Source of the DNA: Thermoanaerobaculia bacterium
Lineage (GTDB): Bacteria; Acidobacteriota; Thermoanaerobaculia; Multivoradales; Multivoraceae
Direction: 5' to 3'
Length of the DNA stretch: 64,000 nt
Assembly (NCBI GenBank): GCA_963666565.1
Contig: OY762911.1
Coordinates: 1,472,001-1,536,000, forward strand
The position numbers and the translations under genes are program-made. Numbering within the stretch: position 1 is the stretch's first letter; each line of letters opens with the position of its first letter. The notes under the pieces are model-generated. The model saw only the letters and a program-made list of their open reading frames with translations, was not told the DNA's origin and made no database searches. Of the stretch, positions 4,968 to 25,966 are shown piece by piece.

Positions 4968-6142
4968 TCGTTCGAGCCTTGCTTGAGCAAAGGCCGATTT
5001 GGAACGACGCCACGCAGGAACTCGTCGACCGGCAAGCAGAGGACGTCGTCGACCAGGAGGCGGTCGGCGCCGCGATACAGCAGAGCGGCCTGAGCCTCCG
5101 GATAGTCGGCCACGAAGGCCCTGAGCGCGCGCAGGTCGCTTCGCTGCGCGGTCCGGGAGTTCTTGACCTCGAAGGCCCAGAAGCCAGCCTCTCCGTAAAC
5201 GACGAAGTCGATCTCCGAACCGCCGCGCGTGCGCCAGAAGAACAGCCTGTTGGCGCCTCCCGAGTACGCGGCCCAGGCGCGGAGATGCTGTGCCACGAGA
5301 CCTTCGAGGGCCGGTCCTTCCGTCTCGGCCCGGCTGTCCAGCGGTCCGGCTGGACGGAGCGCCCGAAAGACGCCGGCGTCGAAGAGGTAGAGCTTCTGGT
5401 GGACGACCGTCTTGCGGCGCGCGCGCCTCCGGAACACGGGCAGGCGGAATGCCAGAAGCAGGTCTTCCAGGATGGTGACGTAGCCGGAGGCGGTGCGGTG
5501 CGGCACTTCGCACTCCCTGGCGACGGAGGCGACGTTGAGCTGGGCGCCGTGCGAGAAGCTGACTGCTTCGAGGAAGCGGGCGAAGGCCCCGACGTCGCGA
5601 ACGATGCCCTCGGCCTGGACTTCCTGCTCCAGGTAGAGCCCCGCATACGCCCTGAGCATCTCGTCGGGATCCGGCGCGCGGGTCACCAGGGGAAGGAGTC
5701 CGATGGCTAGTGCTCGGTCCAGGGAGAAGTCGGGCGTCTCCGCGGCCATGAAGGGGTGCATCGTCCGGTAGAAGGCTCGGCCCCCGAGGAGATCGACGCC
5801 GCCTCGGCGGAGCTTCCTCGCGCTCGATCCGGTAAGCGCGAACCGCCGGCTGTCGGGCGATTCCAGGACGGAGTGAACCACGGTGAGAAGCTCGGGTACG
5901 CGCTGGACCTCGTCGACGACCACGTCGGTGCGGTCCGGCTCGGCGGCGATCATCTCGCGCAGGCGCTCCGGGCGGGCCCGGAGAGCGCGGTACAGAGCCG
6001 GGTTGAGCAGATCCAGATAGAGAGCATCCGGAAGCTGGTCCCGGAGCCAGGTCGACTTGCCCGTCCCCCGAGGCCCGAAGAGGAAGAAACTCTGGTCTGG
6101 TAGCCCGCAGAAGCGCGGCGTTATTGCCGATTTGCGTCGCAA
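4964..6142 (-). CDS. AAA_14 ATPase with DUF4143 / PD-(D/E)xK-like C-terminus
   Basis: Walker A GPRGTGKST, Walker B VVDEVQ, LTGSSARKL, KLYLFDAG, EIDFVV...AFEVK. Confidence 0.9.
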   Translation of the reverse strand: MRRKSAITPRFCGLPDQSFFLFGPRGTGKSTWLRDQLPDALYLDLLNPALYRALRARPERLREMIAAEPDRTDVVVDEVQRVPELLTVVHSVLESPDSRRFALTGSSARKLRRGGVDLLGGRAFYRTMHPFMAAETPDFSLDRALAIGLLPLVTRAPDPDEMLRAYAGLYLEQEVQAEGIVRDVGAFARFLEAVSFSHGAQLNVASVARECEVPHRTASGYVTILEDLLLAFRLPVFRRRARRKTVVHQKLYLFDAGVFRALRPAGPLDSRAETEGPALEGLVAQHLRAWAAYSGGANRLFFWRTRGGSEIDFVVYGEAGFWAFEVKNSRTAQRSDLRALRAFVADYPEAQAALLYRGADRLLVDDVLCLPVDEFLRGVVPNRPLLKQGSNE

Positions 6143-14989: not shown

Positions 14990-16099
14990 TCAGTCGCAGC
15001 CTTCGCGCGTCTCTTCGATGAGGCCATCGACGACGGCGTTCAGGTCGCCCGCCTCGGCGCGGGCGATCTGGCGGTCGGCGCTGGTGCCCTCGGCGAGGAT
15101 CCGGTGGACGTACTCGACCTCCTTGCGGATGTTCAGCTCGTCCAGCACGTCGTCGACGAAGTCGAGGAGTTCCTCGGTCAGAGAGCGAAGCGGCACCTCC
15201 TCGCCCTTGCCGAAGTCGATCAGCTTGCCGTCGATGCCGTAACGGATCGCGCGCCACTTGTTCTCGTAGATCAGGTGGCGGGGATAGCGGCGCCAGGCCT
15301 GGTTGTTATGGCGGAGGCGGATCAGCTTGCCGACGATCGCCATCAGGAGCGCCGTCATGCACAGCGCCTCCTCGATCTTCGTGCAGACGTCGAAGACCCG
15401 GAACTCGATCGTCGGGAACTTGGGGTGCGGCCGGACGTCCCACCAGATCTGCGTCGGCTCCTCGATGCACCTCGTCTGGACCAGCACGTTCACGAGCCGC
15501 TCGTACTCGGCGTAGGAGCGGAGCGACGGCGGCAGGCCGGAGCGGGGGAGGCTCTCGAAGACGACGGAGCGGTAGGACTTGAGCCCCGTGTTGCGCCCCT
15601 GCCAGAACGGCGAACTCGTCGACAGCGCGAGCAGGTGCGGCAGGAAGTAGAGCGACTGGTCCATCACGTCGATGCGGAGTTCCTTGTCGGGAACGCCGAC
15701 GTGGACGTGCATGCCGAAGATCAGCATGCGCCGGGCGACGTCGCCGAAGTTCTCCTGCAGCTTGATGTAGCGCTGCGCCTCCGTGACGTCCTGCTCCTGC
15801 CAGGCCGAGAACGGATGGCTGCTGGCCGCCGCGATGCGGAGTCCGTTCCGGGACGCCAGGTGCCCGATCGACCGCCGCAGCCGGATGAGCTCCTGGCGCG
15901 CCTCGTCGATCGAGCCGCAGACCTCGCTGCCGACCTCGACCTGGCACTGCAACTGCTCCGCCTTGATCTGCTCCTGGAGCACGATCTGGCCCTGCTCCAG
16001 GAACTTCTGGATGAAGGGCTTCAGTTCCCGGCTCTCGGGTTCGATGATCTGGTACTCCTCTTCGATGCCGATGGTCAGCTCGGGAAGTCTCGTCTTCAT
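14990..16099 (-). CDS. ybdK: Carboxylate-amine ligase, YbdK/GCS2 family (glutamate-cysteine ligase-like)
   Basis: TIGIEEEYQ, FGMHVHVG, LALSTSSPFW, IWWDVRPHPKFPTIEFRVFD, ENKWRAIRYG. Confidence 0.9.
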   Translation of the reverse strand: MKTRLPELTIGIEEEYQIIEPESRELKPFIQKFLEQGQIVLQEQIKAEQLQCQVEVGSEVCGSIDEARQELIRLRRSIGHLASRNGLRIAAASSHPFSAWQEQDVTEAQRYIKLQENFGDVARRMLIFGMHVHVGVPDKELRIDVMDQSLYFLPHLLALSTSSPFWQGRNTGLKSYRSVVFESLPRSGLPPSLRSYAEYERLVNVLVQTRCIEEPTQIWWDVRPHPKFPTIEFRVFDVCTKIEEALCMTALLMAIVGKLIRLRHNNQAWRRYPRHLIYENKWRAIRYGIDGKLIDFGKGEEVPLRSLTEELLDFVDDVLDELNIRKEVEYVHRILAEGTSADRQIARAEAGDLNAVVDGLIEETREGCD

Positions 16100-16233
16100 C
16101 GGGCCTGCTCCTGGGTTGGGGGATGCCGCAAGCGTATCCGGCCCGCGCGGGACGGCCGCGGCGCGCGGCCCATCCCGCGCGCGCTCCCGGGGGACCGGCG
16201 ACGCCGGGGCGCTCTGATACCGTGACGCCCGCC

Positions 16234-18006
16234 ATGAGCTGGCCCGCGACCACCGCCTGGCGCCCGCGGGTTCCCCGCGCGGTGAGCTGGCTGCTCGTTC
16301 CGCTCCTGCTTCTGGGAGCGGCCTGCGGCGGGCGCGACGCGGCGCCGGACGCCGCCGCATCCTGGCCGCTCTACGGCACGGCGCCCACGGCGCGCGGCGA
16401 GGCGGGCATGGTCGTCAGCGGCCACGGCCTCGCCTCCGACGTCGGCGCCGCGATCCTGGCGGAGGGCGGCAACGCGGTCGACGCGGCCGTCGCGGTCGGC
16501 TTCGCCCTGGCCGTCGTGCTGCCGTCCGCCGGCAACCTCGGCGGCGGCGGCTTCCTCGTCTACCGGTCGAGCGACGGCGACGCGCGCGCCCTGGACTACC
16601 GCGAGAAGGCGCCGGCCGCCGCCAGCCGGGACATGTTCCTGGACGACGAGGGCAAGGTGACGGAGGCGTCGGTCATCGGCCACCTCGCCGCCGGCGTCCC
16701 TGGCTCGGTGGCCGGCCTGTGGGAGATGCACCGGGAGTACGGCACGTTGCCCTGGGCCGACCTCGTCGCGCCGGCGGTCGAACTCGCCCGCGGCCACGAG
16801 ATCGACGAAGCCCGCTCCGGAAGCCTGGCCCGCGCGGCGTCGCGGCTCGAGCGCTTTCCCGCCAGTGCGGCCCAGTTCCTGGTCGACGGCGAGGCGCCGC
16901 CGCCGGGCACGGTCCTGGCCCAGCCCGACCTGGCCGCGACGCTGACCGCGATCGCGGAGCAGGGGCCGGACGGCTTCTACCGCGGTCCCGTCGCCGATCT
17001 GATCGTCGCCGAGATGGAACGGGGCGGCGGGCTCATCTCCCACCGGGACCTGGAGGACTACGCCCCGGTCTGGCGCGAGCCGGTCGTGGCCGAGTACCGG
17101 GGCCACACGATCTTCTCGATGCCCCCGGTCTCCTCGGGCGGACTCACCCTGGGCCTCATCCTGAACGTGCTGGAGGGCTGGGATCCGCTGCCGCCGTTCG
17201 GCAGCGCCGGCCTGGTGCACGTGGAGGCGGAGACGATGCGGCTCGCCTTCCGCGACCGCAACACCCTGCTCGGCGACCCGGACTTCATCGACATTCCCCG
17301 CGCGCAGTTCGAGTCCCAGGAGTACGCGGACGAACTGCGGGCGCGGATCGATCCCGAGCGCGCGACGCCGCTGCCGCCGATCGAGGCGGCGCCGCCGGCC
17401 GAGAGCGCCGAGACGACGCACTACTCCATCGTCGACCGCTGGGGCGCGGCGGCGTCCGTCACCACGACGATCAACGGCGCCTACGGGAACGCCGTCACGG
17501 TCGCCGGCGCCGGCTTCCTGCTGAACAACGAGATGGACGACTTCGCCGCGTCGCCGGGCCAGCCGAACCAGTTCGGGCTGGTCGAGGGCGAGAACAACGC
17601 GATCGTGCCCGGCAAGCGGATGCTCTCCTCGATGACGCCGAGCATCGTGCTCGACCCGGAAGGCGATCTGATGATGGTGGTCGGCACGCCGGGCGGCCCG
17701 ACGATCATCACCTCCGTCTACCACGCGATCTCGAACGTGATCGACCACGGGATGCCGCTCGACCGGGCGGTCGAGAGCCCGCGGGTGCATCATCAGGCGT
17801 GGCCGGACCGGATCTTCTACGAGGAGGAAGGGCTCGCCGCCGACGTGGTCCAGGAACTGGAGCGCCGCGGGCACCGGGTGGTCGGCCGGGGCCACAGCGG
17901 CGACGTCGCCGCCATCCTGGTGGAGGGGTCGAGCCTCGTCGGCGTGGCGGACCCGCGGCGAGGAGGCGGCGCCAGCGCGCCGGACTCGCCCGGCGACGCC
18001 GACTGA
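16234..18006 (+). CDS. ggt: Gamma-glutamyltransferase (lipoprotein)
   Basis: GGNAVDAAVA, DYREKAP, autocleavage site ETTHYSIVD, LNNEMDDF, PGKRMLSSMTP, GTPGG. Confidence 0.95.
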   Translation: MSWPATTAWRPRVPRAVSWLLVPLLLLGAACGGRDAAPDAAASWPLYGTAPTARGEAGMVVSGHGLASDVGAAILAEGGNAVDAAVAVGFALAVVLPSAGNLGGGGFLVYRSSDGDARALDYREKAPAAASRDMFLDDEGKVTEASVIGHLAAGVPGSVAGLWEMHREYGTLPWADLVAPAVELARGHEIDEARSGSLARAASRLERFPASAAQFLVDGEAPPPGTVLAQPDLAATLTAIAEQGPDGFYRGPVADLIVAEMERGGGLISHRDLEDYAPVWREPVVAEYRGHTIFSMPPVSSGGLTLGLILNVLEGWDPLPPFGSAGLVHVEAETMRLAFRDRNTLLGDPDFIDIPRAQFESQEYADELRARIDPERATPLPPIEAAPPAESAETTHYSIVDRWGAAASVTTTINGAYGNAVTVAGAGFLLNNEMDDFAASPGQPNQFGLVEGENNAIVPGKRMLSSMTPSIVLDPEGDLMMVVGTPGGPTIITSVYHAISNVIDHGMPLDRAVESPRVHHQAWPDRIFYEEEGLAADVVQELERRGHRVVGRGHSGDVAAILVEGSSLVGVADPRRGGGASAPDSPGDAD

Positions 18007-18031
18007 GGGGCCGGGTGGCCGTGGCCGGCGC

Positions 18032-21000
18032 ATGAACGGCCGGCGGATCTTCGCCGCGGTGACCGTCGGTCACCTCGGCATCGACATCTTCAACAGCATG
18101 GGGCCCGTGCTGCTGGCCTTCCTGCAGGCGCCGCTCGGTCTGAGCGCCGCGCAGATCGGCCTCGCGGTGGGCCTCTTCCAGGTCCTGGCCGGCACGACCC
18201 AGCCGGCGTTCGGCTGGCTGGTCGACCGGATCGGCAGCCGCTTCCTGGGTCCGCTCAGCGTCGCCGTCAACCTCGGCTGCGTGGCGCTCGCGGTCGCGGC
18301 CGCCGGCGCGACGGGCAGCTTCGTCCTGTTCCTCGTTCCGTTCGCGCTCGCCGCGGTCGCGTCGGGCGCCTTCCATCCGCTGGGCGTGATGCACTCCAGC
18401 ACGGTCAACCTGGCGCGCTCGGCCACGTTCACCGCCATCTTCTTCTTCTGCGGCCAGGTGGGGCTGACGACCGGGCCGGTCCTGGCCGGCCTCGCGCTGG
18501 ACCGCGCGGGGCTTGCCGGGATCTACTGGCTGGTGCTGATCGTCGCGCCGGTGCCGCTGTTCATGGCCTTCGCGATGGGGCCGCGGCGGGTCCATTCCGC
18601 GCCCGCCACGGCTCACCCGGGTGAGAGTCGGGCCGACGACGGCGTCGGCGACGCGGCGTCCGGCGGCCGGCTTCCCCTGCGGGTCGGCGCCGTCGCTCTG
18701 CTCGCGCTGGTCTTCGCCAGCCGGTCCTGGGCCGTGTTCGGGACGATCGCGTTTCTGCCCCTGCTGCTGAGCGGGTACGGCTACAGCTCCCTGGCCCAGG
18801 GGGTCGCCAGCGCGATGTTCCTGCTGGGCGGCGCCGTCACCGCGGTCTTCGCCGGCGCCTGGGCCGATCGCTGGGGCCGGCGCCCGGTCGTCTTTCTGAC
18901 CACGCTGCTCGGTTCGCTGCTGCTGGCCGTGTTGCCGGGCGCCGGCGGCTGGCTGTTCGCCGTCGTCCTGCCCTGCGGCGCGCTGCTGGGCGCCTCGCAC
19001 TCCATCCTGATCGTCACGGCCCAGTCGTTGCTGCCGTGGCGCCGGGGCCTGACCTCGGGGACGGCGCTCGGTTTCCTGTTCGCGACCGGCGGGATCGCCA
19101 CCTGGGCCATCGGCGAACTGGCCGACCGCTACGAACTGGCGACCGTGCTGCAGGCGGGGGCGATCGTCGGCTTGGTGTCCGCGGTCTCCTCCCTCCTCCT
19201 GCCGAGGCGGGGCCGGGCCCCGCTGGCGGCCGCGCCGGCGGTTTCGACGGCGCTCGTCGTCGCGGTCGCCGGCCTCACGCTGTTCGGCGCCCGTCCGGCG
19301 GCCGCCGGCCTGAACGGCGAGATCAACGGCCAGGTGCGCGACGCCGCGACCGACGTGCCGCTGGCGGGCGCGGAGATCAGGATCACGGGCGACCAGTTGC
19401 ACAGCACCCAGATCGTCCGCGCCGGCCGCGGCGGCAGCTACCGGGCGCCGGGCCTGCCTCCCGGCGACTACTACGTCGAGGCGAGCGTGGACGGCTACGC
19501 GACCTCCGTCGTCGAGAACCTGATCCTGGTCGCCGGCGGCGTGCTGCGGGTCGACTTCCGGATGAGGGCCGGCAGCGCCTCGGCGCTCGATCTCGTCACG
19601 TCGCCGCTGCTCGACGTGGTCACCGGCAGCGACGGCAACGTCCTCGCCGGCGACGACCTGCGCGAACTCCCTGGCGCCGCGGCGGCGTTCAACCTCGACC
19701 TGGCCTCCGGCCTCGACGGGCTGGACGGAGACGTGGCGGTCAACGGCTGGTCGCCCGGCTTCGCCACCTACCGGATCGACGGTCAGGAGAGCGCGGTCCG
19801 CGAACCGGACGCCGCTGGCATCGATCCTCGCTGGGTGGACCAGGTACGGGTCTGGACGATGGAACTGGCGGCCGCGATGGCCGGTCCGCACATCGACCTG
19901 ATCACGCGCTCGGGGGGGACCGAGTGGCGGGCCAACGGCGGCTGGTCGACGGTCGAGCCGCTCGACACAGGCAAGCGGCTGGCCCTGCGCCTGCTCGACG
20001 CCGGAGAGTCGCCGGCCGGCGGCAGGGACCGGAGACGCATCGAGGGCGACGAAGCGACCGTCTTCGCCGGCGGGCCGCTGCGGGACAAGCGGGCGCGCGC
20101 GTTCGGCGGCCATTCGAGAAGCCGCGCGCGCGGCACGGAGAACCTCTTCGGCGCGGGCGCGCCGCTGACCTGGGACGAGACGGTCGAACAGTCCGTCGGT
20201 AAGCTCGACTGGTGGGCCGGCTCGGCCAGCAACCTGACCCTCAAGCACCACAGCGCGGCCGGCGAGCTGGACGGCCGGCGACCGGCGCCGTTCGTTCTCC
20301 CGTCCGCGGACGGGAACGAGAGCGCCCGGTCGCGCCGGCAGACGACCAGCCTGAACGTGGAGTGGGGAATCACCGACCGGCTCTGGCTGCGCGTCTTCGG
20401 CGGGCGCTCCGACTTCACCGGGACGGGCGAACCGTGGCAGGACGCGGGGGCGTACTTCGCGGCGCCCGCGCCCGGCCGGGCGGCGGGCTGGTACGAGGCG
20501 GGTCCGGCGGGCCGGGTTCGGCGGGCGGTGGAGCGGCGGAACTGGGCGGTGGAACCGTCGTTCTTCTTCTTCGACCACACGCTGGAGGTCGGCGTGCAGA
20601 GCACGAAGGGCCGCCTGGATTTCGCCCGATCCGGACGCTCCGCGCGGATTCTGGAGTTGCCGGGCGGCCCGCTCGACACCTGGAGCGGCGATGGTGTCGG
20701 CGCTTACCGGCTCCGGCAGGAGAAACGCGCCGTCTACGTCCAGGACGCCTGGCGCGTTGGCGGCGCTTTCGAGCGGCGGCTGACGCTGCACGCGGGACTG
20801 CGCGCGGAAGAGGAAGAGGCGGGCCCGCTCGACCTTGAGTTCGAAGACCGCACGGAACCTCGGCTCGCGTTCGTCTGGGACGCCGCGGGCCGCGGCAGGT
20901 GGAAGGTCTACGGCGGCGCGGCGTGGTGGCACGTCGAGGTCTTCCGGCCGGGGGCGGGCCGCGCGGACGTCGACGCGGTCGCGGCCGTGGAAGCGGCCGG

Positions 21001-21988
21001 CGGCTACGGCGGCACGAGCCTCGACTTCGCACGGGCGGCGGTGGACCCTGACCTCCGTCCCGGCCGGGTGCGCGAAGTCCAGTTGGGTACGGTCTACCAG
21101 TTCCTGCCCGACGTCGTCATCTCGGCACGGGTCGCCCGGCGCCGGTTGCGGGACGGCATCCGCCTCCTGCCCGCGTTGGCCGGCGGCGAAGTCGTGCCGA
21201 CTCTGCTGACTCCCGGCCGCGGCGCCGGCCGGGCGCCCTGGGGCGAAGCCGGCGGGGAGCTTCCCCGGCTCGAGCAGAACTGGTGGGGCGCCGAACTGAA
21301 CGCTCATGTCGGCTTCAACCCCTCGTGGAGGATTCGCTTCTCGTACGTCCTGAGCCGGCTGACCGGCAACCACGAGGCCGGCGGACTCGGGCTCGGGCCG
21401 GGCGACCTGCCGGGCGCCCATCCGGCCCTTGCCGCGCTCGACCTGTGCTCCTCGCCCGTGCCCTGCGACGTGTTCGATGTCACGAACGACAGCCGCCGGC
21501 TGAGCCTCGACCGCGAGCACCAGCTCTCCGGCTGGCTCGTCCTCTCACCGGGCGAACGCTGGCAGATGGCCCTGGTCTACCGCTTCCGCACCGGCGCCGC
21601 CTACGTGCCGCGCGCCTTGGCGGTCCGGGTCGACGGGGAGAGCCGCATCCTCGGCGCCGGCCTGACTCCTTTGCCGTCCGGCGCGGACGGGCCGCTCAAG
21701 AGCGCCGATCTCAAGCGCGCCGACCTGTCTCTCACCTACCGCGTCCCGCTTCGCTCGGACGACCGGCGGCTGTCCCTCTTCGCCGAGGCCCTCAACGTCT
21801 TCGACCAGGACGCCGCGAACCAGCTCTGGCCGCTCGCCTGGCTCGACCCGGTCCTCGTCGGCCCGGGCCGTACCGACCTGCTCGCCGCCGCGGCAGCGCA
21901 GGGGGCAAGGCCGGATCCGCGCGAGTCGCTTCCCGCCGCCTTCCAGACCAGCCGCCGCGTACGCGCCGGTCTGCGCCTCCAGTTCTGA
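18032..21988 (+). CDS. Fusion: MFS transporter (Fsr-like, about aa 1-390) + internal signal peptide + carboxypeptidase-regulatory domain + TonB-dependent-receptor-like beta-barrel
   Basis: MFS motifs GWLVDRIGSR and GAWADRWGRR; then PRRGRA-hydrophobic-PAAA; GEINGQVRD...GLPPGDYYVEAS; AVYVQDAWRV...LTLHAGLR; C-terminal VRAGLRLQF. No stop codon between the parts. Confidence 0.8.
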   Translation: MNGRRIFAAVTVGHLGIDIFNSMGPVLLAFLQAPLGLSAAQIGLAVGLFQVLAGTTQPAFGWLVDRIGSRFLGPLSVAVNLGCVALAVAAAGATGSFVLFLVPFALAAVASGAFHPLGVMHSSTVNLARSATFTAIFFFCGQVGLTTGPVLAGLALDRAGLAGIYWLVLIVAPVPLFMAFAMGPRRVHSAPATAHPGESRADDGVGDAASGGRLPLRVGAVALLALVFASRSWAVFGTIAFLPLLLSGYGYSSLAQGVASAMFLLGGAVTAVFAGAWADRWGRRPVVFLTTLLGSLLLAVLPGAGGWLFAVVLPCGALLGASHSILIVTAQSLLPWRRGLTSGTALGFLFATGGIATWAIGELADRYELATVLQAGAIVGLVSAVSSLLLPRRGRAPLAAAPAVSTALVVAVAGLTLFGARPAAAGLNGEINGQVRDAATDVPLAGAEIRITGDQLHSTQIVRAGRGGSYRAPGLPPGDYYVEASVDGYATSVVENLILVAGGVLRVDFRMRAGSASALDLVTSPLLDVVTGSDGNVLAGDDLRELPGAAAAFNLDLASGLDGLDGDVAVNGWSPGFATYRIDGQESAVREPDAAGIDPRWVDQVRVWTMELAAAMAGPHIDLITRSGGTEWRANGGWSTVEPLDTGKRLALRLLDAGESPAGGRDRRRIEGDEATVFAGGPLRDKRARAFGGHSRSRARGTENLFGAGAPLTWDETVEQSVGKLDWWAGSASNLTLKHHSAAGELDGRRPAPFVLPSADGNESARSRRQTTSLNVEWGITDRLWLRVFGGRSDFTGTGEPWQDAGAYFAAPAPGRAAGWYEAGPAGRVRRAVERRNWAVEPSFFFFDHTLEVGVQSTKGRLDFARSGRSARILELPGGPLDTWSGDGVGAYRLRQEKRAVYVQDAWRVGGAFERRLTLHAGLRAEEEEAGPLDLEFEDRTEPRLAFVWDAAGRGRWKVYGGAAWWHVEVFRPGAGRADVDAVAAVEAAGGYGGTSLDFARAAVDPDLRPGRVREVQLGTVYQFLPDVVISARVARRRLRDGIRLLPALAGGEVVPTLLTPGRGAGRAPWGEAGGELPRLEQNWWGAELNAHVGFNPSWRIRFSYVLSRLTGNHEAGGLGLGPGDLPGAHPALAALDLCSSPVPCDVFDVTNDSRRLSLDREHQLSGWLVLSPGERWQMALVYRFRTGAAYVPRALAVRVDGESRILGAGLTPLPSGADGPLKSADLKRADLSLTYRVPLRSDDRRLSLFAEALNVFDQDAANQLWPLAWLDPVLVGPGRTDLLAAAAAQGARPDPRESLPAAFQTSRRVRAGLRLQF

Positions 21989-21993
21989 CCGCC

Positions 21994-22153
21994 GGGTGCG
22001 CGGGTCTTCCGACCGCTGGGTGCGCGGGTCTTCCGACCCGCATCGGGCGAGCCGCGAAGCGGCGGAGCCCGGAGAATCGGGCCGCCGGCCAAAGGCCGGC
22101 GACGCTGCCGGTCGCCGCCTCCGGCGGCAGCGGGTCGGAAGACCCGCGCACCC
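21994..22153. repeat. BIME-like cluster of three REP-like hairpins between convergent genes
   Basis: Direct copies at 21994 and 22018, inverted copy at 22130-22153. Confidence 0.9.
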
Positions 22154-22166
22154 GGTGTGGGGCGGC

Positions 22167-24917
22167 CTACACCAGTTCGCTCAGCCGCCGCAGCGCGGCC
22201 AGCAGGTCCGGCTGTTCCGTCAGCACGCCGCGGAGCGGGTCGGCCTTCAGCTCTTTCAGCCGCTCGGGCACGGTGCGGATGTTGTGGTCGCGCAGGTCGA
22301 GACCGGGCTTGACTTCCGACCAGCGAAGCGGCGTCGACACCGGCGCCGCGGGCAGCGGCCGGACGCTGAAAGGGGCCACGAGCAGCCGGCCTCGGCCGTT
22401 CTGGACGTAGTCGATGTAGACCTTGCCGGCGCGCCGTTCCGGGTTGCGGGTCACGGTGGCGATCTCGGGCAGTTCGCGGCAGACGATCTGGGCGATGAGC
22501 TGCCCCAGGCCGCGCGACTGCTCCCATGTGCAGGCGCCGCCGAGCGGCAGGAGCACGTGCAGGCCGCTCGAGCCGCTGGTCTTGACGAAGCTGGGCAGCT
22601 CGATCTTCCGGCACAGGCGGCGGATGGCGAGGGCGATTTCGATCACGTCCTCGAACGGGGCGTCCTTGGGGTCGAGGTCGAGGATGCACCAGTCGGGCTG
22701 GCCGAGCCGGTGCAGCCGGCTGGACCACACGTGGAGGACGATCGCGGCCAGGTTGGCCACGTAGAGGAGGCTCTCGCGGTTCTGGCAGACGAAGTACTCG
22801 ACGTCCTTGCCGGTCCGCGGGCTGGTCAGCCGGACCGTCTGGAGCCAGTCCGGCGCGAAGTCCGGCGCGTTCTTCTGGAAGAAGGACTTGCCGTCGATCC
22901 CGTCCGGGTAGCGGGTCATCACCAGGGGACGGTCGCTCAGGTAGGGCTGGATCGCCCCGGCGACGGCGGCGTAGAAGTCGATCAGATCGCCCTTTGCGTA
23001 GCCCTCGTCCGGCCAGAAGACCTTGGAGACGTTCGTGATCTCGACCCGGCGCTTGGGCGGCACGGGCGGGGCGGCGCTCTTCGCGCGCGGCCCGGCGCGC
23101 CGGACGCAGTCCCCGATCGGCTTGTCGTCCCGGCGCCGCAGGAAGACCGGATGCCGGAGCAGGCCGTGGGGCGTCCACTCCTTGAAGCGGACCTCGCAGA
23201 CCAGTTCGTCGTCCGGCTCGACCCAGGTCTGGTCGGCGATGCGGCCGCCCATGATGTGCTCGTCGGCGAGCGCGGCGCCGGCCGGCGTCGCGCGGCCGTC
23301 TCCGGCATCGCCGGCGCCGTCTTCGATGTCTCGGTTGCCGCGGTCGCCGCCGTCCGCCGCCACGGGCGCTCCGCACGGAGGGCTGTCGCGCCGTCTGGCC
23401 GTCAGGCGCTCCGTCAGTTGCGCGAGATCCGCGTCGCTGAATCCCGTGCCGACGCGCCCGGCGTAGACGAGCCCGCCTCGCGGTCCGCCGTCGCCGCTGG
23501 CGCCTTCCGCTCCCTCGACGGCCCCGGCCTCGGGGTCCCAGACCGCCAGGTGGAGCGAGCCGAAGCCGACCCGGCTGCCCTTGGGCGGCGACATGCCGAC
23601 GATGGCGAAGTCGGCGGTGCGCTCGGTCCGGAACTTGACCCAGGACGACGAGCGGCGGCCCACGTAGCGCGACGCGCCGTCCTTGGCCATCGCCCCCTCG
23701 AGACCCATGGCGGCGACCTGCTCGAAGAACGCCTCTCCCTGCTCCTCGATGTGGTCGGAGTAGCGAAGCGGACCGGCCGGCGGCAGCACCCTGGCAAGCA
23801 GGGCCTTGCGCTCCAGCAGCGGCAGCGGGCGCAGGTCGCGGCCCTCGAACGACACCAGGTCGAAGGCGAACAGGGTCGCCGGCTGGCGCACGGCGGCCCG
23901 CTCGATGTCGACCTGGCGGCTGAGCAGGCCGCGCTGCTGCAGCCGGGGGAAGCTCGGCCGGCCGCCGCCGTCGAGCACGACGACTTCGCCGTCGAGGACC
24001 AGGGACTGCGCCGGCAGCGCTCGCAGGGCGCGGGTCAGCTCCGGGTAGAGCGCGGTCACGTCGCCGCCGCGCCGGTAGCGCAGGAAGACGTCGCCGCCCT
24101 CCCTGGCGGCGATCAGCCGGTAGCCGTCGTGCTTCAGTTCGTAGATCCAGCCGGCGCGGGAGAAGGGCCGGTCGCCCGCCACCGCCAGCATCGGCGGCAG
24201 CGTCCGCGGGTCGACCCGGCGGCGCGGCGCCGCCGACGCCTCGATCTCCTCCCGCACCTCCTCGATCCGCTCGCAGCCGTCCCGCAGTTCCTCCACGGTC
24301 AGGCCCGAGAGCACGGACTCCTGCGGCAGGCCGTCTCCGGGGCCGGCGTCCCCGTCGCCGCCGGCAGGGTCGGTGTGCATGTCGCTGCCGGCCCGGTTCG
24401 CGCCGTCGTCGCTGCCGGCCGGCCGCGCCGCGGCGTCCGGCTTCTTCATGAGCAGCCACTGACTGCCGTCCTCGGCCTGCCGCCGGCCGCCGGTGCGGAA
24501 CAGCGTCCACACGCCGCGCAGCTTGTAGCCCCGCAGCTCGAACAGGAGCTTGCCGCTCTCCATGCCGGCCACCGGATCCTCGAGCGGGACCCAGCGTCCG
24601 CTGTCCCACACGATCATCGCGCCGGCGCCGTAGTTGCCGGCGGGGATCGAGCCCTCGAAGTCGGCGTACTCCAGCGGGTGGTCCTCGGTGGCCACCGCGA
24701 GCCGCTTGACCTCCGGGTCGAGGCTGGGGCCGCGCGGCACGGCCCAGGACTTGAGCGTGCCCTCGAGTTCCAGGCGCAGGTCGAAGTGGACGCGGCGAGC
24801 GGCGTGCTTCTGGACGACGAAGCGCCCGCCGCCGGCCGCGGCTCGAGAGCCCATCGGCTCGGGCGTCGCGTCGCCCGAACGCTTGCGGCGGTAGACCTCC
24901 AGATCGCCGTGCGGCAT
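22167..24917 (-). CDS. ligD: NHEJ DNA ligase D (phosphoesterase - ligase - polymerase)
   Basis: FVVQKHAARRVHFDLRLE (PE), YELKHDGYR (ligase), RYPDGIDG...FFQK, DLDP, KTSGSSGLHV (POL). Confidence 0.95.
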   Translation of the reverse strand: MPHGDLEVYRRKRSGDATPEPMGSRAAAGGGRFVVQKHAARRVHFDLRLELEGTLKSWAVPRGPSLDPEVKRLAVATEDHPLEYADFEGSIPAGNYGAGAMIVWDSGRWVPLEDPVAGMESGKLLFELRGYKLRGVWTLFRTGGRRQAEDGSQWLLMKKPDAAARPAGSDDGANRAGSDMHTDPAGGDGDAGPGDGLPQESVLSGLTVEELRDGCERIEEVREEIEASAAPRRRVDPRTLPPMLAVAGDRPFSRAGWIYELKHDGYRLIAAREGGDVFLRYRRGGDVTALYPELTRALRALPAQSLVLDGEVVVLDGGGRPSFPRLQQRGLLSRQVDIERAAVRQPATLFAFDLVSFEGRDLRPLPLLERKALLARVLPPAGPLRYSDHIEEQGEAFFEQVAAMGLEGAMAKDGASRYVGRRSSSWVKFRTERTADFAIVGMSPPKGSRVGFGSLHLAVWDPEAGAVEGAEGASGDGGPRGGLVYAGRVGTGFSDADLAQLTERLTARRRDSPPCGAPVAADGGDRGNRDIEDGAGDAGDGRATPAGAALADEHIMGGRIADQTWVEPDDELVCEVRFKEWTPHGLLRHPVFLRRRDDKPIGDCVRRAGPRAKSAAPPVPPKRRVEITNVSKVFWPDEGYAKGDLIDFYAAVAGAIQPYLSDRPLVMTRYPDGIDGKSFFQKNAPDFAPDWLQTVRLTSPRTGKDVEYFVCQNRESLLYVANLAAIVLHVWSSRLHRLGQPDWCILDLDPKDAPFEDVIEIALAIRRLCRKIELPSFVKTSGSSGLHVLLPLGGACTWEQSRGLGQLIAQIVCRELPEIATVTRNPERRAGKVYIDYVQNGRGRLLVAPFSVRPLPAAPVSTPLRWSEVKPGLDLRDHNIRTVPERLKELKADPLRGVLTEQPDLLAALRRLSELV

Positions 24918-24997
24918 CAGGCGTGCATTCTCCCAGAACGTCAAGGGAGCTTCACGGAATCCCGCGGAAGCGGTTTCAATGCTAGGATTTGCGGTCT

Positions 24998-25966
24998 ATG
25001 CCCGCTCGTACCGTTGGCGCCGGCACCGTCTCGTTCGGCCTGGTCTCGATTCCCGTCCGCCTGTACTCCACCTCGGAGACCTCGGGCGCGGTCCGCTTCA
25101 ATATGCTCGACCCGACCGACAACACGCGGGTCAAGCAGCAGTTGATCAACCCGCGCACCGGCGCCGAGGTGAAGCGCAAGGAGACCATCAAGGGCTACGA
25201 GTTCGGCAAGGGCCAGTACGTCACCTTCAGCGACGAGGAGATCAAGGGCCTCCAGGAGAAGGCGTCGCCCGCCATCGAGATCACCGAGTTCGTGCCGCTC
25301 GAGGAAGTCGAGCCGATCTACTTCGAGAAGTCGTACTACCTGGGTCCCGAGAAGGGCGGCGAACGCGCCTACCGGCTGCTCAGCGAGGCGATGCGGAAGA
25401 CCGGCCGTTCGGCTCTGGCCAAGCACGCGGCGCGCGGCAAACAGTACCTCGTCATGCTCCGCCCCTTCGCGTCCGGCCTGCTGATGCAGCAACTGAAGTA
25501 CGAGGACGAGCTGAAGTCGTTCGACGAGGTGCCGCTCGGCGAGGAGACGGAGCTCAAGCCGGGCGAACTGGAGCTTGCCGTGCAGTTGATCGAGCAGATC
25601 GCGTCGGACGAGTTCAAGCCCGGCGAGTACACCGACGAGGTGCGCAAGCGGCTGTGGGACGCGATCCAGAGCAAGATCGACGGCCGCGAACTGGCCGAGG
25701 ACGAGACGGAGGCGCCTCAGGCACAGATCATCGACCTGATGGAGGCGTTGAAGGCGAGCCTGTCGAAGAACGGCGAAGCCGACGCCGGCGAGTCGGCCGC
25801 CGGCGGCGCCAGACCGAAGTCCGGCGCCCGCAAGGCCGGGGCCGCCAAGCCCAATTCCGGAACCCGCAAGCCGGCCAGGAAGGCGACGGCGCCGCGCAAG
25901 GCGACGAAGAAGAAGCCGGTTCGGCGAGCCGCGAGCACGACGGCGAAGCGGGCCGTGGCCGGTTGA
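24998..25966 (+). CDS. ku: NHEJ Ku protein
   Basis: GTVSFGLVSIPVRLY, IKGYEF, YFEKSYYLGP, IIDLMEALKASL, Lys-rich tail; divergent from ligD. Confidence 0.95.
   Translation: MPARTVGAGTVSFGLVSIPVRLYSTSETSGAVRFNMLDPTDNTRVKQQLINPRTGAEVKRKETIKGYEFGKGQYVTFSDEEIKGLQEKASPAIEITEFVPLEEVEPIYFEKSYYLGPEKGGERAYRLLSEAMRKTGRSALAKHAARGKQYLVMLRPFASGLLMQQLKYEDELKSFDEVPLGEETELKPGELELAVQLIEQIASDEFKPGEYTDEVRKRLWDAIQSKIDGRELAEDETEAPQAQIIDLMEALKASLSKNGEADAGESAAGGARPKSGARKAGAAKPNSGTRKPARKATAPRKATKKKPVRRAASTTAKRAVAG

Follow-up and report, generated by a model that had tools for sequence, protein, structure and literature searches.

The 64,000-nucleotide stretch of DNA analysed here (the window) corresponds to positions 1,472,001 to 1,536,000 of contig OY762911.1 from a Thermoanaerobaculia bacterium of the family Multivoraceae (assembly GCA_963666565.1), the source genome being a single 4.79-Mb contig that is 97% complete. 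Between positions 18032 and 21988 the window carries one open reading frame (ORF) in which a permease of the major facilitator superfamily (MFS) is followed, with no stop codon in between, by a protein resembling the TonB-dependent transporters (TBDTs) of the outer membrane. The two parts are joined by a stretch that looks like a signal peptide. In window coordinates, the parts of the ORF are as follows:

18032..21988, + strand: fused ORF, 1318 amino acids plus stop codon, ATG start
18032..19204, + strand: MFS permease module, residues 1-391 (PF07690, AlphaFold2, Foldseek)
19205..19306, + strand: internal signal-peptide-like linker, residues 392-425 (alignment, position tallies, AlphaFold2)
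19322..19564, + strand: CarboxypepD_reg domain, residues 431-511 (PF13620, AlphaFold2)
19586..19990, + strand: TonB-box-like stretch (LDLVTS, residues 519-524) and plug-like domain (residues about 536-653)
20015..21985, + strand: beta-barrel, residues about 662-1318 (PF00593, AlphaFold2, Foldseek)

The G+C content of this region is about 74%, a composition at which long open frames arise by chance and mean little by themselves. The fused frame is considered real because both halves match curated families and because the whole frame is conserved in relatives. In Pfam, MFS_1 (PF07690) is matched at residues 21-335 (E 8.9e-29, 100.9 bits, cut-off 33.4), CarboxypepD_reg (PF13620) at residues 431-511 (E 1.7e-15, 57.6 bits, cut-off 32.3) and TonB_dep_Rec_b-barrel (PF00593) at residues 761-1256 (E 6.1e-12, 46.6 bits, cut-off 27). 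A first-pass annotation, made by reading the DNA letters and a list of ORFs, had described a single frame of 1318 amino acids that contains a full MFS, and this description is borne out by the translation of the ORF, by the MFS_1 match and by the 12 helices of an AlphaFold2 (AF2) model. The carboxypeptidase-regulatory domain, the barrel and the terminal Phe that the same annotation had placed behind the MFS are likewise recovered, the first two as Pfam matches and the last as a residue, F1318, that is invariant in 33 of 33 orthologues.

The AF2 model of residues 1-520 (mean predicted local distance difference test score, pLDDT, of 83) places 12 helices between residues 2 and 387, mostly with pLDDT above 90, and a long central loop at residues 182-217. 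All of the top 50 Foldseek matches of the MFS model are MFS transporters, with TM-scores (normalised to the target) of 0.55-0.83, and its structural neighbours include sialin, DgoT, FLVCR and GlpT. The free-standing relatives of the module are proteins of about 400 amino acids, whose matches cover 93-100% of residues 1-397. None of the NCBIfam MFS subfamily models is matched at its cut-off (the best score is 17.6 bits against 407.75), and the name of the FSR family, which derives from the homologue labels of one source only, has no curated model match behind it. Loops resembling motif A follow helix 2 (DRIGSR) and helix 8 (DRWGRR). Motif-A loops are cytoplasmic in known MFS proteins, so that both termini of the permease are expected to lie in the cytoplasm; this would imply that the helix of the linker runs in-to-out and that the chain from G426 onward is on the periplasmic side. 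The earlier view that the linker has the right topology for export is thus in keeping with the model, in which the 12 helices end at residue 387 and a separate helix occupies residues 403-417.

The 893 C-terminal residues (426-1318) were modelled from a 67-row alignment, with a mean pLDDT of 85 and a predicted TM-score (pTM) of 0.85. The model opens with a beta sandwich, the CarboxypepD_reg domain, which folds in this way in both AF2 models; a mixed alpha/beta region comes next, at model positions 111-228, and many antiparallel strands in succession follow it. The mixed region suggests, as far as the model goes, a plug-like region in front of the barrel. When the model was compared with the Protein Data Bank by Foldseek, the top matches were solely TBDTs, the best being YddB (6ofr, E 1.2e-40), followed by PqqU, FusA, PirA, Cir, YncD, PfeA and SusC-type chains with E-values from 1e-40 to 1e-30. 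These alignments cover 826-936 columns, against the 893 residues of the model. Among the 33 orthologues, residues 519-548 are strongly conserved and include invariant columns, and a segment of the form LDLVTS...PLLD precedes the plug region; its first part (LDLVTS, residues 519-524) we take to resemble the TonB box of other TBDTs. At the C-terminus, the pattern RxGxRxxF comprises R1311, G1313, R1315 and F1318, each invariant in 33/33 orthologues, and F1318 remains nearly invariant in the 67-row alignment, where distant homologues are included. Judged by the model, the C-terminal 893 residues are a complete TBDT-like protein of the Oar type. The same genome encodes two signal peptidase I homologues and one BamA, and has five TonB_C matches. 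The CarboxypepD_reg domain also matches giant proteins of 3000-6300 amino acids with dozens of tandem copies of the domain; one of them (P0040, 6305 amino acids) contains 59 stretches that match it. Striking as these proteins are, they have no bearing on the fusion.

The fused arrangement is not peculiar to the window. A contiguous, stop-free match to residues 1-1318 is present in 20 of 24 other genomes of the genus, with 72-84% identity. Three of the remaining four (G007, G011 and G016) are contiguous at the junction and show a break elsewhere or a contig end, and the fourth (G010) is split at the junction. When a junction probe (residues 301-560) was run on 57 genomes of the family, it was matched over its whole length and with no stop in 40/41 other genomes of the genus, G010 being the sole exception. 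Public protein collections hold 33 full-length fused proteins of 1300-1336 amino acids and 67-84% identity, and in a search limited to long proteins with this MFS all 35 of 35 matches belonged to the fused family. These proteins are labelled 'MFS transporter' (from Holophagales or Acidobacteriota bacterium), one of them bearing an FSR-family MFS name. In a protein atlas, no large cluster combined the MFS and TonB-dependent receptor (TBDR) families; the best scores, of 0.75, are leads only. In Logan contigs from three runs of one study, the junction is covered with no differences and no indels; this study may include the source sample, and rare variants could escape notice in assembled contigs. 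A run of a second study (X5) covers the gene partially, with about 92% likeness. The two findings that would have spoken most directly against the first-pass annotation, a stop or indel at the junction and a deletion private to this genome, were not encountered, the former in the contigs of the three runs and the latter in view of the fused frame in 40/41 genomes and 33 proteins. The architecture that it had proposed to look for in related genomes proved to be the rule of the genus. We conclude that the gene fusion is genuine and that it has become fixed in the genus.

The linker that joins the two modules can be divided in the manner of a signal peptide:

residues 392-397: n-region, RRGRAP
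residues 398-420: hydrophobic region, with a helical core at 403-417 (15 residues)
residues 421-425: c-region, RPAAA
between nt 19306 and 19307: predicted signal peptidase I cut, between A425 and G426

The succession of an Arg-rich stretch, a hydrophobic stretch and P-A-A-A before G426 had been read correctly in the first-pass annotation, including the start of codon 426 at nt 19307. In the AF2 model, residues 388-402 are of low confidence, residues 403-417 form a detached helix of 15 residues (pLDDT about 57) and residues 419-429 are disordered. The features of a Sec signal peptide are all present, namely a positive n-region, a hydrophobic core and small residues at positions -3 and -1; with its 15 residues, the core is like that of a signal peptide and short if it is to span the membrane stably. 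The linker starts at residue 392, behind 12 helices, and is thus not N-terminal as signal peptides usually are.

Comparison with free-standing proteins offers a second line of evidence. A search with the 893 C-terminal residues against 1.84 billion cluster representatives gave 2994 matches at E<=0.001, 16 of them at E<=1e-30. The closest full-length free-standing relatives (P0042, 990 amino acids, E 4.7e-44; P0050, 985 amino acids; P0058, 989 amino acids) pair with query residues 3-6 from their own residues 32-42, that is, from just past their signal peptide. In a multiple alignment, the N-terminal signal peptides of the homologues end in AxA followed by Q, in the columns of A423-x-A425 and of the G, S or Q at position 426, and the cut that had been predicted before G426 therefore coincides with the sites of the free-standing homologues.

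In other respects the linker is the least conserved part of the protein, with a column identity of 0.72 (0.60 in the n-region), whereas the MFS, CarboxypepD_reg, plug and barrel parts have mean column identities of 0.82-0.85. In a manual count over the 33 fused orthologues, position -1 is Ala in 33/33 and position -3 is Ala in 32 and Val in one, while position -2 is occupied by eight different residues (A, S, W, V, M, H, R and T). Position -4 is Pro in 29/33, position +1 is G in 17, S in nine and Q in seven, and the residues ahead of the hydrophobic core are net positive in charge in 32/33. The small/any/small pattern known as the -3,-1 rule is needed by signal peptidase I and not by a plain membrane anchor. 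The linker has drifted, yet it has kept this pattern together with the helix breaker, which is the signature of a signal peptidase I substrate rather than of an anchor. The linker is most readily understood as the retained Sec signal peptide of an outer-membrane protein, and from the pattern we infer that it is cleaved.

The sister genera may indicate how the fusion came about. In 14 of 15 genomes from the 12 other genera of the family, the junction probe matches the C-terminus of the MFS only, with 46-59% identity. The match stops at probe residue 93-116, about the end of the MFS, in 12 of those 14, and in the other two it reaches probe residues 127 and 147, only by passing through TGA stops. 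At ten sister loci, L021 excepted, the MFS frames stop 6-35 codons past the conserved 'LP' that closes helix 12. A separate CarboxypepD_reg ORF on the same strand directly follows the MFS gene at five of the ten loci, in four genera (L020, L022, L024, L026 and L028), and three of these five ORFs match the TBDR barrel as well. The simplest history would be that the fusion arose from adjacent MFS and TBDT genes in the ancestor of the genus. The stop codon, the intergenic spacer and the start codon would have been lost, and the signal peptide would have been kept as an internal segment.

G010, the one genome of the genus with an interrupted junction, deserves separate attention. At its locus (L019, G010:C1:3264000-3274000; junction at about locus position 5570-5600) one nucleotide of the linker is deleted relative to the window, and the MFS frame meets a TGA after one further codon. 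In another frame, both the signal-peptide-like stretch and the whole outer-membrane part are intact, over 926 aligned residues with 71% identity and no stop. The nearest ATG, GTG or TTG of this frame is a GTG, which precedes the cut site by 53 codons and has an Arg-rich stretch behind it. Either a sequencing error in a homopolymer or a true secondary split could account for the deletion. In a FastTree phylogeny of the MFS part, with free-standing MFS proteins as the root, G010 is nested in the fused clade (support 97) and has another fused clade as its sister; a tree of the outer-membrane part, obtained by a quick method, puts it in a basal polytomy, with very long branches to the outgroup. 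A secondary split is the more parsimonious history because of the nesting of G010 within the fused clade on the MFS tree. If the split is true, the two halves can exist as separate chains.

A further hint comes from the fused proteins themselves. Seven of them (P0022, P0023, P0025, P0026, P0030, P0033 and P0034) share a divergent MFS module, here called type B, which is 89-91% identical among them, whereas the outer-membrane parts behind it are only about 72% identical. Conversely, the nearest outer-membrane relatives of this set (P0019, P0020, P0029 and P0024) are 90-93% identical in that part and 64-71% in the MFS. The switch point of the mosaic coincides with the border between helix 12 and the linker, and the trees of the two halves disagree accordingly. 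The discordance of the halves implies that the MFS module was exchanged by recombination while the fusion was kept. As far as sequences can tell, such an exchange would fit two independently working products better than a single co-adapted machine.

Taken together, these observations make it probable that the ORF encodes a polyprotein from which signal peptidase I produces two proteins, a 13-helix MFS and a mature outer-membrane transporter. The MFS part would be inserted during translation and keep both of its ends in the cytoplasm. The signal peptide behind it would then act as a 13th segment, running in-to-out, and would start the translocation of the 893-residue tail through SecYEG. Cleavage by signal peptidase I after A425 would leave a 425-residue MFS protein with an extra C-terminal helix in the inner membrane, while the mature protein from G426 would be assembled into the outer membrane by the beta-barrel assembly machinery (BAM) via its C-terminal Phe signal. 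The two products may work as an uptake pair across two membranes, made in a 1:1 ratio from one message.

Several points weigh against this reading or against the history proposed for it. The uncharged segment from L398 to A420 comprises 23 residues and could anchor the protein stably if it were wholly helical, and AF2 assigns little confidence (about 57) to the linker segment. As a rule, outer-membrane proteins are exported post-translationally, and no precedent was found for an 893-residue barrel precursor that is exported while forming the tail of a substrate of the signal recognition particle (SRP) type. Pfam Plug (PF07715) gave no match at E<=1 in the fused ORF. At the other five of the ten sister loci, none of the tested same-strand ORFs of at least 200 amino acids contained the CarboxypepD_reg domain. 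The outer-membrane genes of the sister genera are only 22-38% identical to the outer-membrane part of the fused gene, with very long branches, as compared with 52-59% for the MFS parts; the outer-membrane partner has thus diverged far more than the MFS, which suggests either that the barrel evolves fast or that it was replaced by a non-orthologous gene. Orthology of these partners is plausible from the sequences. Finally, what the pair might carry can only be guessed, from its neighbouring genes, as discussed below.

Alternatively, the linker may not be cleaved at all. It would then be a permanent 13th helix that tethers the TBDT to the MFS, giving either an importer that spans the envelope or a barrel held near the inner membrane. 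In its most unusual form, this alternative would provide a single-polypeptide conduit across the whole envelope, in which the substrate is handed directly from one transporter to the other; we regard the uncleaved protein, in this form too, as unlikely. The preservation of one unbroken frame throughout the history of the genus is what a tethered protein would lead one to expect, and the uncharged segment 398-420, with its 23 residues, is long enough for a membrane span. Moreover, the N-terminal extension of Oar is described in a report on this protein as periplasmic and dispensable for accumulation in the outer membrane (PMC6434023), so that a tether at this place is not obviously incompatible with assembly of the barrel. 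An anchor, however, has no need for Ala at position -1 in 33/33 orthologues, for Ala or Val at position -3 in 33/33 with a free position -2, or for Pro at position -4. The geometry is also unfavourable: the beta sandwich begins five residues past the hydrophobic segment, only about 25 low-confidence residues lead from there to the plug, and the estimated reach of about 10-12 nm is short for a typical Gram-negative periplasm. Independent recombination of the MFS and outer-membrane parts, which argues against a single co-adapted machine, and the survival of both halves in separate frames in G010 also count against a permanent tether. The first-pass annotation had left the choice between a polyprotein and an uncleaved transporter undecided; the conserved -3/-1 pattern favours the former and speaks against the latter, to the extent that cleavage may be predicted from sequence.

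It is also conceivable, and in our opinion quite unlikely, that most of the outer-membrane protein is made from an internal start upstream of the linker, for example a GTG at V382, the read-through product being a tolerated by-product that is perhaps cleaved as well. An in-frame GTG is indeed found at V382 in 11 of the 12 loci examined in the genus, and the GTG of the G010 frame, 53 codons upstream of the cut site, could serve the same purpose. Nevertheless, the twelfth locus (L016) has GCG at this position, and GTG is a common Val codon at such a G+C content. A scan of positions 15900-22300 for the sigma-70-type consensus, the only promoter type covered, revealed no promoter-like site. Moreover, in a frame without a stop, ribosomes that finish the MFS must enter the outer-membrane part, so that the fused chain would be made in any case.

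It is most improbable that the ORF is an artefact or a decaying pseudogene, in which an error of sequencing or assembly, or else a recent inactivating mutation, has joined two genes. High G+C content eases long open frames and G010 differs by a 1-nt indel exactly at the junction, but the read-through recurs in 40/41 independently assembled genomes of the genus and in 33 public fused proteins, the most distant of which are 67% identical. Both halves have column identities of 0.82-0.85, the three runs yield contigs in agreement with the gene, no Pfam domain is damaged and the AF2 models have high confidence.

The genes upstream of the fused ORF may provide a clue to its function:

16123..18006, + strand: gamma-glutamyltranspeptidase (GGT) gene (Pfam G_glu_transpept, E 1.1e-162)
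14990..16096, - strand: GCS2-family (glutamate-cysteine-ligase-like) gene (Pfam GCS2, E 1.7e-58)

The GGT gene, of the periplasmic type, precedes the fused ORF by 25 nt and shares its strand, and a GGT homologue is found directly upstream of the fused gene in 12/12 loci examined in the genus; the GGT gene is likely to be an operon partner of the fused gene. In the window, the GCS2-family gene is transcribed divergently from the GGT gene. At three sister loci (L022, L024 and L026), a GAF-GGDEF gene of the diguanylate-cyclase type (about 390-416 amino acids) lies between GGT and MFS, a position at which it is not found in the genus of the window. It is tempting to speculate, with low confidence and from the neighbourhood alone, that the transporters take up glutathione or other gamma-glutamyl compounds, or the products of their breakdown. 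At the N-terminus of the GGT protein, a hydrophobic stretch closes with LLLLGAACGG and, judged by its sequence, might be a lipoprotein-type signal.

Immediately downstream of the fused gene (22167-25966 in the window) lies a non-homologous end-joining pair. LigD (925 amino acids, - strand), which combines phosphoesterase, ligase and primase-polymerase domains, is transcribed convergently to the fused gene at 11/12 loci examined in the genus, and an ORF at 24989-25966 (+ strand) is, from a reading of its translation, probably Ku-like. Terminator-like sites, each a hairpin followed by a run of T, were considered within the fused gene and set aside: six occur between 18870 and 20563 on the + strand, against 1.6 expected from shuffled sequences, but the sites are weak and lie in conserved coding sequence.

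If the polyprotein is real, a single ribosome run makes proteins for two membranes. The locus would then be a test case for the co-translational export of a large beta-barrel precursor behind a polytopic membrane protein, as well as for the efficiency of signal peptidase I on the internal signal of a native bacterial protein, and the left-over 13th helix of the MFS would raise the question of its role. The fusion would also be direct genetic evidence that an MFS transporter and a TonB-dependent-type barrel act in one pathway, a link of which gene neighbourhood by itself gives no more than a hint. In addition, since the labels of these proteins read 'MFS transporter' or FSR-family MFS, an outer-membrane transporter has been hidden in the annotation of a whole genus.

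Pairs consisting of a TBDT and an MFS protein are familiar from siderophore uptake, as in FptA/FptX and RhtA/RhtX. In the sucrose locus of Xanthomonas, SuxA of the outer membrane is reported to be paired with SuxC, an MFS protein of the inner membrane (PMC1790865, PMC12798719). The likeness lies in a TBDT-type barrel and an MFS encoded side by side, presumably for one substrate, and the sister genera studied here display the same two-gene layout. The fused gene departs from it in that there is one frame with the MFS first, in that the signal peptide of the barrel is internal, and in that the MFS is FSR-like, if the name used by one source is adopted.

The second half of the protein has its counterpart in the Oar subclass, for which Myxococcus xanthus Oar is described as having an N-terminal PF13620 extension, a TonB box and plug, and a barrel of the 22-strand type (PMC6434023). 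The same order of parts is found in the C-terminal 893 residues of the fused protein. Oar itself starts with an N-terminal signal peptide and is matched by Pfam Plug, whereas the protein studied here is fused behind an MFS and gives no Pfam Plug match. The same source reports Oar to be necessary for protease secretion (PMC6434023), from which no direction of transport is implied for the fused protein. As to the linker, it shares with the signal peptides of P0042, P0050 and P0058 the n/h/c organisation, the AxA motif and a column-for-column alignment, and differs from them in its location 391 residues into the chain, past 12 transmembrane helices.

The nearest precedent known to us for the proposed processing is the fbcH polyprotein of Bradyrhizobium japonicum, which gives rise to cytochromes b and c1. 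There, too, one frame encodes a polytopic inner-membrane protein and, after it, an exported protein with an internal signal sequence ahead of it, and signal peptidase does the processing. Both products of fbcH belong to the inner membrane and to one complex, whereas the second product of the fused gene would be an outer-membrane barrel assembled by BAM. In a search of full-text literature, with most subscription journals outside its scope, neither an MFS-TBDT fusion nor a polyprotein serving the inner and outer membranes was found to have been described, which leaves the absence of one unproven. The components and the steps involved are all of known kinds; it is their combination that is new.

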